Source of the DNA: Patescibacteria group bacterium
Lineage (GTDB): Bacteria; Patescibacteriota; Saccharimonadia; Saccharimonadales; DATIHS01
DNA: 30,445 bases
Reading direction: 5' to 3'
NCBI GenBank assembly: GCA_035480475.1
Contig: DATIHS010000016.1
Span: 1-30,445 of the forward strand
Below the pieces are notes generated by a model. The model was not told the origin of the DNA. It made no database searches and saw only the letters and a program-made list of their open reading frames with translations. Below, in pieces: positions 13,445 to 21,870 of the stretch. The position numbers and the translations under genes are program-made. Each line of letters begins with the position of its first letter. Position 1 is the stretch's first letter.

Positions 13445-13451
13445 ATGGTGA
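13445..13451 (+). repeat. att core ATGGTGA (left junction)
   Basis: Identical to 17387-17393; opens a 34-codon frame that is in frame with the recombinase after circularisation. Confidence 0.8.
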
Positions 13452-13549
13452 ACTATGTGAAGTCGAAATTGAACGCAATCTGTACTGAACTACTAGAAGT
13501 ATACAGCTACATGAGAGCAATAACAGTAGCAGAATACATCCCTGCTTAG
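13445..13549 (+). other. Detached 3' segment of the recombinase gene (MVNYVKSKLNAICTELLEVYSYMRAITVAEYIPA*)
   Basis: Open 35-codon frame starting exactly at the att core and ending 16 nt before the convergent stop at 13566. Confidence 0.7.
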
Positions 13550-13565
13550 AGTAGAACTATATAAG

Positions 13566-14102
13566 TTATTGAATCTGTCTAAGCAATTCCTGGTATGTAT
13601 CTATCGGGCTTCCTTCTTTAATTTGAATATGTATTTGATTAGGACGATTAGGTAACGCAGCTTCCATGTGTTCATAGAGCTGTGTAATTCTCGGAGTGTC
13701 ATCATTCGTCAATGGCGGCAAGCCAGCTTCGCCCCAAGTGCCACGATTTAATAATCTTTGGATTGCGTGGTCTTTATGGGTAGCTAAATAAAACTCATGA
13801 AACACCGCACCACCATTCGTAGCAATTTGTTCTAACTCTGCAACTTCCTCTGCGTTTGTAACGAGATAAGGCACGATAACATCATGGCCTAATTTGATTG
13901 CAACTCTTAGCATGTCTTTTGTTAATGCAAAAACGAGGTCACGTGCTTCGTCTTCATGGTCCAGCCAGTCGCCAATATTAATTATGAGCTGGTCGCCCTC
14001 AATAACCATTGCAAGTGGATGATTATCTACATACATACGTGCGATAGTTGTTTTACCTGAGCCAGCAAAACCATTTAACAAGATTACTTTTGGATTATTC
14101 AT
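13566..14102 (-). CDS. P-loop small-molecule/nucleotide kinase-like protein (AAA_33 / CPT-TmrB-like)
   Basis: VILLNGFAGSGKTT Walker A, IEGD, lid motif QRLLNRG; 178 aa. Confidence 0.8.
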   Translation of the reverse strand: MNNPKVILLNGFAGSGKTTIARMYVDNHPLAMVIEGDQLIINIGDWLDHEDEARDLVFALTKDMLRVAIKLGHDVIVPYLVTNAEEVAELEQIATNGGAVFHEFYLATHKDHAIQRLLNRGTWGEAGLPPLTNDDTPRITQLYEHMEAALPNRPNQIHIQIKEGSPIDTYQELLRQIQ

Positions 14103-14159
14103 TACATTATAGTAACAGATACAAGTACTGCTATTACGATGAATCAGGGTTTAGTAGGA

Positions 14160-14972
14160 CTACTGTTCCGAGCTGGGTGACGATGATTCTAATGGCGGTA
14201 ACTTAATAGAACCATCGAGTAGTCCCTTCAGATACGGCTTGAAGCGTACTGGGATGGTTTCATCCCTTTGTTCTTCGGGGACATGCACCAATGTCCAGCC
14301 TTCATCCATCACTTTTTCGCCTAAATATGCGAAATCTTCTTCGATAGCTTGCCAGACATTATCAAATATCATTCGTACATCTACAGGGTTATCTGGGTCG
14401 TGTTTCTCATTACGCCTATCTCCACTATGTAGAGCATTTCGATGTGAGGCTAGCATATTCTGCCATAGCTTGCGGTCCGTTCTAGCTACATCCACAAACT
14501 CCGAGGCGTTCGGATGTTCTTCAACAAATTTCTTAGCACCCTTTTCAAACTTCTTATCATCCTGGAATATAAAACCTATCTCAAAACCAAGCTCCTTCAT
14601 AAATAGCTGGAAACGATCCTTATATGCCCACCAAATCGAATTATAGAAGGCTACGTATTCTGCCTGCTGGTCAAATGTCGGAAGCTGATGAAAGCTCTTA
14701 GTATCTTCGATTCGACGCAAGTGAATACAGGCAATCTCTAACTGTTCAACGATCCTATCAAAGCGAAAATCTATCTCATCGCTATTTGGTAGTTGTATGT
14801 ACTTTAGGATGTCTTTAATCTGAATCCACACACGAGGTACAAAAAGCTCCTCAGTGCCAAAGTTAGAAGCTAGCTTAAGCGTAAAACCAGGCGGCAGATT
14901 GCCCGTGTACATTTTACCCTTCGGGCTGTTTTGCTTCTGTCGCTTTGGTTTAGTTCGCTTTTTCTTAGACAT
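14160..14972 (-). CDS. Hypothetical alpha-helical protein, possibly HEPN-like
   Basis: Long ORF. Start placed at ATG 14972 because TATAAT (14980-14985) lies 7 nt upstream. Contains W..ML.SHRNALH (RNxxH). Confidence 0.75.
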   Translation of the reverse strand: MSKKKRTKPKRQKQNSPKGKMYTGNLPPGFTLKLASNFGTEELFVPRVWIQIKDILKYIQLPNSDEIDFRFDRIVEQLEIACIHLRRIEDTKSFHQLPTFDQQAEYVAFYNSIWWAYKDRFQLFMKELGFEIGFIFQDDKKFEKGAKKFVEEHPNASEFVDVARTDRKLWQNMLASHRNALHSGDRRNEKHDPDNPVDVRMIFDNVWQAIEEDFAYLGEKVMDEGWTLVHVPEEQRDETIPVRFKPYLKGLLDGSIKLPPLESSSPSSEQ

Positions 14973-15033
14973 AGTCACCATTATATTATCTGACCCCAAA
15001 TTACTTAAAAAATAGCATACGCAACTGGTTAAG

Positions 15034-15267
15034 CTACCAGACTGTCAGAAAACTCATCATCAGCTTATTCCGATTGCTTTTAGCTGTTTCCATTTTTTCG
15101 GCGAACACAGATTCGTGATTTAGGTAGAAGTAATATGTCTGACGACTTATTCCTGCATATCTACAAGCGTCCTTAATATTAGAGTTGGTTTGTATTGCAG
15201 CTATTAGCTTAGTCATGACTTTAGCGTCTACTTTTAATGGTCTGCCTACGGCATTTTTCACAGTCAT
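15034..15267 (-). CDS. Small HTH protein resembling the N-terminus of phage terminase small subunits
   Basis: GRPLKVD...KLIAAI...NIKDACRYAGISRQTYY; SD AGGAG upstream. Confidence 0.7.
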   Translation of the reverse strand: MTVKNAVGRPLKVDAKVMTKLIAAIQTNSNIKDACRYAGISRQTYYFYLNHESVFAEKMETAKSNRNKLMMSFLTVW

Positions 15268-15477
15268 AAAAACTCCTGTATATTCTTACATTCCTACTAA
15301 TAATTATGACAGGTGGGCATTTTCTCAACTTCCATACATAAACCCATCCTAGACGATCCTAGAGCGTCACAGAGGGTATTCCTGTTCATGCCTTACATCG
15401 AGTATATGACTTGCGACAGTACATATATTATTTTCAGATATAATACGGTACTAACGGTATTTTATGCCGCAATTAAT

Positions 15478-15506
15478 TTGCTTTTTGTTAAACATAAGCG
15501 TATAAT
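15478..15506 (+). promoter_or_regulatory. Sigma70-type promoter TTGCTT-17-TATAAT for the small ORF and recombinase
   Basis: Hexamers at 15478-15483 and 15501-15506. Confidence 0.6.
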
Positions 15507-15680
15507 TATAGGCAGAGTAATCGTTGGGGTTCTCTCCTAGTCGCCACGCTATCATGTCTCATGAAAGTGTATGACCCAGCAGATGTAGCTAAGACCGTGG
15601 TTTTACTAAGACCACACAAGTAATTACAAATTAACTTGCTCTTCGTTTGGCGACTAAGACATCCAACGAAAGGGACAGAA

Positions 15681-15892
15681 GTGTCCAAAATATTAACTGT
15701 ACCTGCTGAGCAGCAGGTTATTTCCGTTAAGGAAGCACGGAAACTTTTAGGACAAAAAGCAAAAACACTAACCAACAAAGAACTCGAAATACTTATCCAA
15801 GAAACAGAAACAGTGGTGAGACTCTCTATACGAACTTTTATTAGTTCGAAAAACATTAAAAATAGTGGTAATATTGAAGGAGCAACATCACT

Positions 15893-15896
<4 letters not shown>
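15681..15896 (+). CDS. Small hypothetical protein (71 aa), candidate recombination directionality factor
   Basis: GTG at 15681 after AAGGGA; ISVKEARKLLG...LTNKELEILI helical motif; stop overlaps the recombinase start (ATGA). Confidence 0.65.
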
Positions 15897-17462
<1,566 letters not shown>

Positions 17463-20445: not shown

Positions 20446-21870
20446 CTAGTTCGTAGGGGCAGAGGTGGGCGGTTGCAATTTTGACTTGTCAAAGCTAAAA
20501 CCAAAGGTACTTCCCGCCCCTTCCTGACTCTTGAAGATAATGCTGCCGCCTTGGGCGACGATAACTTTTTTGGCCATAAACAGGCCGAGCCCGGTGCCAT
20601 CCGGCCGCGCTTTGCGGGCATTGCCAGCGCGGTAGAACTTCGTAAACAGGTGGTGTTGTTCTGCTTTTGGTACACCTAAGCCGTCGTCGGTCACGGTGTA
20701 TTCAATGGTTTTATCGGTTTCACGTATACCAACAACAATATGCCCCCCGGTCGGCGTGTAATAAATGGCGTTGTCCATAAAGTTCATAATCACCTGCCGG
20801 ATCTTAGTTTCGTCCAGCATAACCGACGGGAACTTGGCCGGCTTTTCATAAGATAGCTTCAAGCCACGGGCCTGGGCGGTCTCTTGTAACTGATTGACTT
20901 CACTTTCGACAACATCGGCCAGGTTAGTGGCAACGGCCTCAATCACGAACTTGCCGGTTCGCAAACGCGATACGTTCAAGAGGTCGGCAATCAAATACAC
21001 CATGCGTTGGCTACTGGCAAACGCCTGGCTCAGCAGCTTACGCTGCATTTCGCTAATCTCGCCCGCATCCCCTTCGAGCACCATACTCAAGTAGCCTTTC
21101 ACAGAGGTCAGCGGCGTCCGCAACTGGTGCGAGGCCATGCTGATGAACTCGTCCTTCGTTTCATCCATCGTCTTCAGCTTCTCATTCGTCTTTTGCAGCT
21201 GCCGCAACACTTGCTGGTTCTCCTCAAACAGGAGCTTGTTGTCCAACGCAATCCCCACGACTTCGGCCAGACGGTCCAACAAGGCTTTTTCCTTTTCGGT
21301 AATCTCATTGATGGGTTCTGTGAAACCAACAGCCATCAAGCCAACCAGGCGGTGACGAGATAATAGTTTCATAATTGCAATTGATTTAAGGGGTATAACC
21401 TGGCGCAAAGCTGCCACATCATCAACACTGTCGTGTAGTAAATGAGCTATAAAGTTGTCACTTAACTGTGTTACGTCAATAATTGCGGTACGCTCGGGAC
21501 TTACGATCCATTTGTCATGGTCGTCAAGCTCTACCCGGTAGCGATCTACTTCCGGTAGTCCTTCGAACGAGCTTGCCCACCCCATGAGTTCCAGGAAATC
21601 CTTGTGCGGTGGGTTAGCCATAATGGCCACCAAAGGAAAGCTGGATTTCTCAATAATAGCTTGGGCAATGTTTTGGCAAAGCACCTCCAGCTCGTCGTGT
21701 GATTCCAAAGTAAGGTTATCGATCGTCCGTAACAGAGATAGAGTACGATTAATATCCGCCAGCTCCAGGTTACGCTTGTACATTTCCTGGGTAAGTTGAG
21801 CAACATCAACCTCAAGTCGCTTCTTTTTACTACCAAAAACGGTTTTAAGGTGTGTTCTTTGTTTGTCCAC
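20446..21870 (-). CDS. Cytoplasmic sensor histidine kinase (GAF-like + HisKA + HATPase_c)
   Basis: EFISMASHQLRTPLT H-box, NFMDNAIYYT N-box, DDGLGV G1, FTKFYR F-box, GTGLGL G2; no TM segment. Confidence 0.93.
   Translation of the reverse strand: MDKQRTHLKTVFGSKKKRLEVDVAQLTQEMYKRNLELADINRTLSLLRTIDNLTLESHDELEVLCQNIAQAIIEKSSFPLVAIMANPPHKDFLELMGWASSFEGLPEVDRYRVELDDHDKWIVSPERTAIIDVTQLSDNFIAHLLHDSVDDVAALRQVIPLKSIAIMKLLSRHRLVGLMAVGFTEPINEITEKEKALLDRLAEVVGIALDNKLLFEENQQVLRQLQKTNEKLKTMDETKDEFISMASHQLRTPLTSVKGYLSMVLEGDAGEISEMQRKLLSQAFASSQRMVYLIADLLNVSRLRTGKFVIEAVATNLADVVESEVNQLQETAQARGLKLSYEKPAKFPSVMLDETKIRQVIMNFMDNAIYYTPTGGHIVVGIRETDKTIEYTVTDDGLGVPKAEQHHLFTKFYRAGNARKARPDGTGLGLFMAKKVIVAQGGSIIFKSQEGAGSTFGFSFDKSKLQPPTSAPTN

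Follow-up and report, generated by a model that had tools for sequence, protein, structure and literature searches.

The operon of a large serine recombinase in a 0.69-Mb Saccharibacteria assembly, a Patescibacteria group bacterium of the candidate phyla radiation (CPR), begins with a 150-nt multibranched structure. The window, meaning the whole stretch of DNA analysed, comprises the 30,445 nt of contig DATIHS010000016.1. The structure lies at 15521-15669 on its plus strand, ahead of a conserved 71-codon open reading frame (ORF) and the recombinase gene, in a mobile island at a tRNA-Glu gene. It is conserved and covaries in 15 distinct leaders. It is placed between a promoter and the Shine-Dalgarno sequence (SD) and start codon of the small ORF, and one of its invariant strands has two alternative partners. 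We consider it reasonably probable that this is a cis-acting structured 5' mRNA leader, which limits or gates translation of the small ORF and the recombinase of the tRNA-Glu island.

RNAfold gives 15521-15669 a minimum free energy of -46.6 kcal/mol. For 200 dinucleotide-preserving shuffles the value is -31.4 +/- 3.6 kcal/mol (z = -4.24), and none of the 200 equals the leader. The multibranched fold is both the minimum-energy and the centroid structure. A first-pass annotation of the sequence had drawn the same stems and proposed a shuffle control, and both the stems and the control bear it out. The outer stems are TCGTTGG/CCAACGA (15521-27/15663-69) and TAGTCGCCA/TGGCGACTA (15538-46/15648-56). 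The three hairpins inside are TCATG/CATGA within 15546-15570, GTGGTTTT-ACT-AAGACCAC at 15597-15615 and CAAGT..ACTTG at 15617-15638.

We name the helices P1 to P4. P1 pairs UCGUUGGG (15521-15528) with UCCAACGA (15662-15669), and its 3' strand ends one base ahead of the SD. The CGUUGG in its 5' strand is invariant in 15 of 15 homologues. P2 pairs UAGUCGCCA (15538-15546) with UGGCGACUA (15648-15656). The P3 hairpin (15546-15570) contains UCAUG-UCU-CAUGA and the P4 hairpin (15617-15638) is CAAGUAAUU-ACAA-AUUAACUUG. The remaining hairpin, GUGGUUUU-ACU-AAGACCAC (15597-15615), is a junction insertion found only in the clade of the window (the window, L052 and L054). All lie on the plus strand.

How exceptional the fold is can be judged from a grid scan of 404 segments of 150 nt across the window (mean z -0.35, standard deviation 1.27), in which the leader, with a z of -4.2, would rank about sixth. 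Better scores include segments over the tRNA and over the leader of a second recombinase, and the segment over the transfer-messenger RNA (tmRNA) lies just below. The most negative z of the grid (-5.5) belongs to 20851-21000 on the plus strand, inside a minus-strand ORF (20446-21870).

Rfam 15 at gathering thresholds matches the tmRNA and the tRNA in the whole window and nothing at the leader. At E up to 10, the region 15000-16200 yields two chance snoRNA matches, both outside the leader, and no match to the T-box family RF00230. Within or after leaders of the window's type we find no intrinsic terminator (hairpin plus U-run) of the kind that defines an attenuator. Hence the leader belongs neither to the T-box class, whose marks are a stem I with a specifier loop, a conserved T-box sequence and a terminator/antiterminator pair, nor to the attenuators. 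We also considered a hammerhead-like core and a tRNA-like cloverleaf, and set both aside because of the sequence and because the number of arms varies.

To follow the structure through evolution, we gathered homologous loci by searching genomes and metagenomes with the recombinase and the small ORF. The loci are titled Saccharimonadia or Saccharibacteria, and their recombinases are 68-93% identical. Across them the small ORF, its ATGA overlap with the recombinase (present at every locus) and the tRNA-derived C terminus of the recombinase are all conserved. Fifteen distinct leaders share the type of the window, which we call type A (window, L052, L054, L063, L055, L060, L077, L056, L057, L003, L061, L040, L071, L074 and L067). 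The first 11 homologues, folded singly, all adopt the same architecture of P1, P2, P3, P4 and a hairpin at the SD. Four later homologues have the same P1 and P2 arms and inner hairpins. The plus-strand z of the homologous leaders ranges from -2.9 to -6.7.

Pairing is kept while the sequences change. The consensus of P1 is CGUUGGN with NCCAACG, and that of P2 is UAGUMGCC with GGCKACUR. In a MAFFT alignment of 11 sequences, 97.4% of the cells in P1, P2 and the SD hairpin are paired, compared to 27-50% when the strands are slid, and none of 500 shuffles reaches the covariation score. For 40 pairs that include P3 and P4, in all 15 sequences, the figures are 86.6% and 28-44%. Each of P1, P2, P3 and P4 contains compensatory pairs. 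In P1, with 96-98% of cells paired, all one-sided changes are wobble-compatible (G-C to G-U, U-A to U-G), and the last pair is GU, UA, AU or GC depending on the homologue. The fifth P2 pair is C-G in seven sequences and A-U in eight. A hairpin at the P3 position occurs in 15 of 15 homologues with at least seven unrelated stem sequences. The hairpin at the P4 position, also present in all, has at least five versions, for example CAGAUAAAU..AUUUAUCUG, in which pairs C-G, A-U and G-C/U are conserved. The covariation that the first-pass annotation had named as a check is therefore found, with pairing maintained in 14 other diverged homologues by compensatory and G-U changes.

The number of inner hairpins varies. 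L067 carries a different extra hairpin elsewhere in the junction, and members outside the clade of the window and L067 have none. Since most homologues have only two inner hairpins, the conserved core is a three-way junction and not a cloverleaf.

The substitutions also point to the strand that carries the structure. G-U replacements (U-A to U-G, G-C to G-U) occur in P1, in P2 and in a further helix at the 5' end, P0. These changes are neutral in a plus-strand RNA and are A-C mismatches on the opposite strand, which indicates the plus-strand RNA. L055 and L060 also fold much better on the plus strand (-35 versus -26 kcal/mol). Most members fold well on both strands, so energy alone is not decisive and the strand call rests on the G-U pairs.

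This evidence bears on the second idea of the first-pass annotation, a cloverleaf DNA signal serving as an origin or packaging site. A DNA-level signal could be a cruciform or single-stranded origin, a pac site for a terminase-like protein, or a recombination site. What speaks for it is the neighbouring 77-aa helix-turn-helix (HTH) protein, which resembles the DNA-binding N terminus of terminase small subunits, together with the good minus-strand folds of most homologues. We nevertheless hold it to be very improbable. Numerous G-U pairs and wobble changes would be A-C mismatches on the other strand, and long-range compensatory changes are not expected at a duplex site bound by a protein. The structure is phased to promoter, SD and start codon. 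Domain and PHROG matches reveal no replication, relaxase, transfer or packaging ATPase gene in the island, and HTH subtypes do not track leader types. Nor is the leader an att site of the serine integrase, a place of strand exchange between imperfect inverted repeats at an element's ends. Crossover takes place at the tRNA CCA end, 1.7 kb off, and with element ends at 13445-51 and 17387-93 the leader is internal, 1.7-2.1 kb from both. The cloverleaf signal is not supported, given the three-way junction of most homologues, the many G-U pairs and the lack of a replication or transfer protein.

An mRNA leader would fit the phasing. A sigma-70-type promoter, TTGCTT-17 nt-TATAAT, lies at 15478-15506 on the plus strand, and from this box we predict that the transcript starts at about 15513-15514. 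The promoter box ACTTGACA..17..AAGCGTATAATTA is kept at many homologous loci, even where the leader sequence differs. The conserved TTGACA-17-TATAAT box puts the predicted first transcribed base at the foot of P0. At the other end (15670-15686, plus strand), the SD AAGGGA (15670-75) and the start codon GTG (15681-83) are joined in a 5-bp hairpin, GGACA (15673-77) with UGUCC (15682-86). The sequence of this hairpin, GAAAGGGAC..RUGUCC, is invariant in 15 of 15 leaders and its energy is -4.6 to -5.5 kcal/mol. The start codon is GUG in 12 sequences and AUG in three, always at the same position. The first-pass annotation had this geometry right, with a structure that begins about 8 nt after the predicted transcript start and closes at the SD of the small ORF.

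The ORF that begins here (15681-15896, plus strand) has 71 codons and 32 homologues. It has no usable assignment in Pfam, PHROGs or the ESM Atlas. Its stop codon overlaps the start of the recombinase (15893-17428, plus strand), a 511-aa protein with Resolvase, Recombinase and Zn_ribbon_recom domains that matches the integrase family phrog_95. The final codons of the recombinase are the antisense strand of tRNA-Glu.

Leaders that control translation form a functional class, not a sequence family. Two features that mark the class are found here: SD and start codon are paired in a conserved helix, and a covariation-supported long-range pairing (P1, 7-8 bp) lies beside the ribosome-binding site (RBS), 1 nt before AAGGGA. 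The first-pass annotation had proposed a new cis-regulatory RNA. This agrees with the absence of a matching Rfam family, with the conserved promoter upstream and with a covarying plus-strand structure in 15 leaders that abuts the SD/start hairpin; the regulation itself is a prediction from this arrangement.

We also considered that the leader is coding sequence and rejected it. Neither the minus-strand ORF at 15506-15856 nor upstream extensions of the small ORF are conserved. Leader lengths (145-186 nt) differ by non-multiples of three, and a short AUG frame in P3 is absent in other members.

Two elements go beyond the structure described in the first-pass annotation: P0 and an alternative helix, P1alt. 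P0 (15514-15533, plus strand) pairs AGAGU (15514-18) with GUUCU (15529-33). It has 4-6 bp in all homologues, begins 7-8 nt past the -10 box and occurs in three covarying versions, AGAGU/GUUCU, AGAAU/AUUCU and AGAGA/UCUCU. The loop of P0 is the 5' strand of P1, with connecting loops of 1-3 and 0-2 nt. Because the P0 loop carries this strand, P0 and P1 have the geometry of an H-type pseudoknot, and judging from the alignment they probably form one.

P1alt involves a junction motif, CCCAGC (15575-15580, plus strand), which has the consensus N-C-Y-A-R-C followed by AGA and which we call mid. It pairs with GUUGGG (15523-28), and thus with the invariant strand of P1. P1alt is 5 bp long in L056 and 6 bp long in the other 14 sequences. 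The share of paired cells is 97.8%, versus 23-56% when slid. The sixth pair is G-C, U-G or A-U and covaries with the P1 strand. The last base of the shared strand is in fact coupled to both partners: G goes with C in mid and with U or C in the 3' strand of P1, U with G and A, and A with U and U. All three partner positions of L074 (G with C and C) have changed, and they have done so independently of its clade. L067 and L071 have lost the P1 pair and retain that of P1alt. Duplex energies are about -10 kcal/mol for P1 and -5 to -10 kcal/mol for P1alt. Two mutually exclusive partners of CGUUGG, the second one covarying as well, suggest a folding switch.

An invariant strand with two mutually exclusive, covarying partners would also be expected if the leader were a riboswitch-like sensor or a protein-binding operator, of island or host, in which the choice between P1 and P1alt couples excision or integration to a signal. 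Candidate factors would be a ligand, the 71-aa product, the 77-aa HTH protein, the recombinase or a ribosomal protein. Conserved unpaired junction nucleotides (N-C-Y-A-R-C-AGA, J12 with UCUCU, and GAAAGGGAC) fit this idea, and a three-way junction with a pseudoknot is a topology that resembles many riboswitches. We see such a sensor as possible, though rather unlikely. Lineage-specific hairpins are inserted at different places of the junction in the clade of the window and in L067, which a tight ligand pocket would rarely tolerate. No Rfam riboswitch matches at E up to 10, the gene context implies no ligand, and sister elements have unrelated leaders instead.

For a leader that gates translation we propose the following mechanism. 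The transcript would start at about 15513-14 with its first five bases paired as P0. The CGUUGG in the P0 loop would pair about 140 nt downstream with CCAACG, immediately before the SD. With P0, P1, P2, P3 and P4 formed, the whole untranslated region would become one compact, probably pseudoknotted domain that abuts the SD/start hairpin. This closed state would leave the 30S subunit no single-stranded landing site, and the small ORF would therefore be translated at a low level. The recombinase, translationally coupled to the small ORF by the ATGA overlap, would for this reason be translated at a low level too.

The P1alt motif would be transcribed about 90 nt earlier than CCAACG and would compete with it for CGUUGG. 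In the P1alt state, the stretch CCAACGAAA ahead of the SD would be freed as a single strand. The switch may be kinetic, set during transcription, or it may be set by a factor; in either case it would allow a brief or conditional burst of translation.

A second probable effect of the paired 5' end is to protect or stabilise the mRNA. Protection could even be all that the leader does: a paired 5' end and a compact fold would guard against 5'-end-dependent RNases and leave translation unaffected. P0 pairs the very first predicted nucleotides, and in the leaders of another type (type B, below) a long hairpin likewise stands 1-2 nt from the predicted start. A pure stabiliser leaves unexplained why P1 ends exactly at the SD, why SD and start form a hairpin and why CGUUGG has a second partner, and a simple 5' hairpin would suffice for it. 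We find this explanation improbable.

Several observations weigh against a translational gate. At about -5 kcal/mol the SD hairpin is weak, and it does not depend on P1. Compared to the closed fold, a nested fold with P1alt and no P2 is less stable by 10-13 kcal/mol, so P1alt would have to arise as an intermediate during transcription or else join P2 in a pseudoknot. The nested-structure energy model that we used can score neither the pseudoknot nor the switch. The 15 type A sequences represent about five clades, and with so few lineages the covariation amounts to a handful of events. Contigs of relatives from four RNA-library runs (three metatranscriptomes and one that is probably DNA) cover the HTH and recombinase genes, and none covers the leader; such contigs are not proof of transcription. 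Finally, at least six types of leader, unrelated to one another, stand behind a similar promoter in front of recombinases that are 72-93% identical. As near-identical recombinases do with unrelated leaders, the type A structure is not indispensable.

The other leader types (about 200 nt upstream of the small ORF in L005, L006, L017, L007, L008, L018, L023, L004, L016, L019 and L009-L011) are informative in themselves. Type B leaders open with a 64-nt hairpin 1-2 nt from the predicted start, followed by a U-run. In type C leaders the SD and AUG are buried in a long hairpin, again followed by a U-run. Types B and C, unlike type A, thus have terminator-like hairpins. Ahead of the same recombinase, other leader types too have an SD-sequestering or terminator-like hairpin at their end, which suggests a common need to damp expression.

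Two loci show how leaders may be exchanged. L023 is chimeric: its 5' half is of type A, its 3' half of type C, and the two meet at CCAACAGA. This leader lacks the 3' strands of P1 and P2 and keeps P0, P3 and P1alt, and its partnerless P2 strand has diverged. L063 (877-2421) has a type A leader and a 77-aa HTH gene, followed by a different 67-aa ORF of which only the first two codons are common to both. The L063 recombinase is only 23% identical to that of the window. Since the same unit of promoter, leader and start precedes an unrelated ORF and a distant recombinase, it recombines as a cassette. On the sequence comparison, leader cassettes swap independently of both the recombinase and the HTH gene.

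Type A leaders are rare. R1, a covariance model built from all 15, matches once in the window's own genome and nowhere in 35 distant recombinase loci of viral contigs or in loci with other leader types. DNA similarity reveals no second copy of the 261-nt region in its own genome and no homologue among 60 relatives at order level. When 400 genomes of the class were scanned for the pattern, one further true member (L063) and one chance match in a coding region (L064) came up, which shows that the motif is rare. The same scan of viral contigs gives two chance matches only, in GC-rich coding DNA. Relatives of the recombinase in viral contigs are at most 28% identical over long matches, and none has the motif.

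The exchange of leaders also bears on whether the RNA acts in trans, as an independent small RNA or as a guide or scaffold for the recombinase. The model for the latter is the bridge RNA of IS110-family elements, which is encoded in the non-coding end beside the recombinase gene and serves an enzyme with a DEDD/RuvC-like domain plus a Tnp domain; its internal loops are complementary to target and donor DNA. The likeness is that here, too, a structured RNA of about 150-180 nt, with variable hairpins and conserved internal motifs, sits beside the recombinase gene of a mobile element, directly upstream of it. The enzyme, however, belongs to another family: it is a large serine recombinase and brings its own DNA-binding domains. 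Nor does the leader show complementarity to target or donor sites: duplexes with both island junctions and tRNA-Glu are no better than shuffles (z -1.0 to +1.6). Leader type is uncoupled from recombinase and target, as nearly the same recombinases with the same tRNA-Glu target have unrelated leaders, and the same leader precedes a recombinase that is only 23% identical. No terminator separates the leader from the ORF. A trans-acting RNA is therefore a far-fetched explanation, and a role of the leader RNA itself as a cofactor of the recombinase is less likely than a sensor.

The leader is part of a mobile island of about 3.9 kb (13445-17393), with a GC content of about 0.41 versus about 0.51, bounded by ATGGTGA at 13445-51 and 17387-93 (the tRNA CCA end). 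The island lies between the pyruvate kinase gene and tRNA-Glu(UUC) (17388-17462, minus strand). Its other genes, all on the minus strand, encode a P-loop kinase (13566-14102), an uncharacterised 279-aa protein (14160-14999) and the divergent 77-aa HTH protein (15034-15267; phrog_4102, E 7e-12). A 413-nt intergenic region separates the HTH gene from the 71-codon ORF. The HTH gene adjoins the leader in 17 of the 28 loci examined, and most of the remaining loci end before that point. We reject co-evolution of HTH gene and leader, as the HTH subtypes are distributed without regard to leader type. Between the HTH gene and the promoter lies a 30-codon ORF (MNRNTL..., 15297-15389, minus strand). The DNA around the start of this ORF forms a block, TCCAGAGGGTATTC..GTTCAT, that is found again in intergenic regions of L007, L008, L056 and L060. 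This region may be a small gene or an operator region.

Islands with the common core (HTH gene, leader, small ORF and recombinase at tRNA-Glu) carry differing cargo. Besides the P-loop kinase and 279-aa protein of the window, we find NTP_transf_2 and EcoR124_C (L052), a beta-lactamase-fold protein (L057), Mrr_cat (L060) and Ser_hydrolase (L067). A good part of the cargo is defence-like.

The window contains a second large serine recombinase (841-2490; 23% identity with the first), which extends into the CCA end of the tmRNA and has a parallel layout. TGGTATAAT at about 413-421 is followed by a leader at about 428-531 that starts with GGUAGAGUUGG and has a strong hairpin at 434-461. Next is a small ORF (about 532-713) in which the KEA..K.LT..EL motif occurs again, and between this ORF and the start of the recombinase lies a structured spacer. 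Of all 150-nt segments of the window, 376-525 (z -4.5) and 751-900 (z -5.3) rank among the most structured.

Large serine recombinases drive many prophages and islands and are major tools of genome engineering. To our knowledge, the control of their own expression is known in few cases only, and we know of almost nothing on gene regulation and mobile elements in Saccharibacteria or other CPR bacteria. The type A leader provides a concrete RNA family that can be aligned, with 15 sequences, a covariance model and a defined promoter, SD and start. Covariation-backed helices and an apparent two-partner switch at the RBS make post-transcriptional control of the mobility of a CPR island testable. 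Swappable leader cassettes before near-identical recombinases form a natural comparison set for the tuning of recombinase dosage. If the leader were a sensor after all, an RNA sensor would gate excision and integration of a minimal tRNA-targeting island in an ultra-small CPR bacterium.

Our literature searches turned up no account of a structured leader upstream of a serine recombinase gene, and none of islands like this one in Saccharibacteria. The way in which we think the leader works has nonetheless relatives elsewhere. Fold-back inhibition and metastable 5' structures were reportedly described by Gultyaev, Franch and Gerdes in 1997 for hok-family mRNAs, from plasmid R1-type killer loci. 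In hok, long-range pairing between 5' and 3' ends closes the mRNA and silences a sequestered SD; the 3' end of the mRNA takes part in this pairing, and its processing undoes it. The type A leader would be similar in its long-range closure beside a sequestered SD, in that some helices form earlier in transcription than others and in its coupled covariation, here of CGUUGGN with the mid motif and NCCAACG. Unlike hok, it would close the 5' leader only, and we see no sign of an antisense RNA. It has no similarity to hok in sequence or architecture, and it precedes a recombinase operon and not a toxin.

Transposase genes offer a second comparison. Fold-back inhibition in IS10 and the stem-loop that occludes the SD in the tnpA 5' untranslated region of IS200 both limit translation. 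The parallel would be a mobile element that keeps its recombinase scarce through RNA structure at the RBS. In IS10 and IS200 this is achieved by single hairpins or read-through pairings, whereas the type A leader has a 150-nt multibranch, a probable pseudoknot and an alternative pairing, and it precedes the gene of a large serine recombinase, carried by an integrative island of a CPR bacterium.

A third relative is the +42 mRNA of tisB, which has a 5' pseudoknot and a standby site that serves a sequestered RBS (PMC7708055). The likeness would lie in a 5'-end element, a hairpin-sequestered RBS and access through an upstream single-stranded stretch. In tisB, the 5' structure activates standby binding at a single-stranded site 100 nt upstream (PMC7708055). 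In our model the candidate landing site, CCAACGAAA, instead adjoins the SD and is the very strand that P1 would capture. The type A leader, which by sequence and architecture is a member of none of these groups, is a new RNA family of a known functional kind, with hok-type mRNAs, IS10 and IS200, and tisB as its closest functional analogues.

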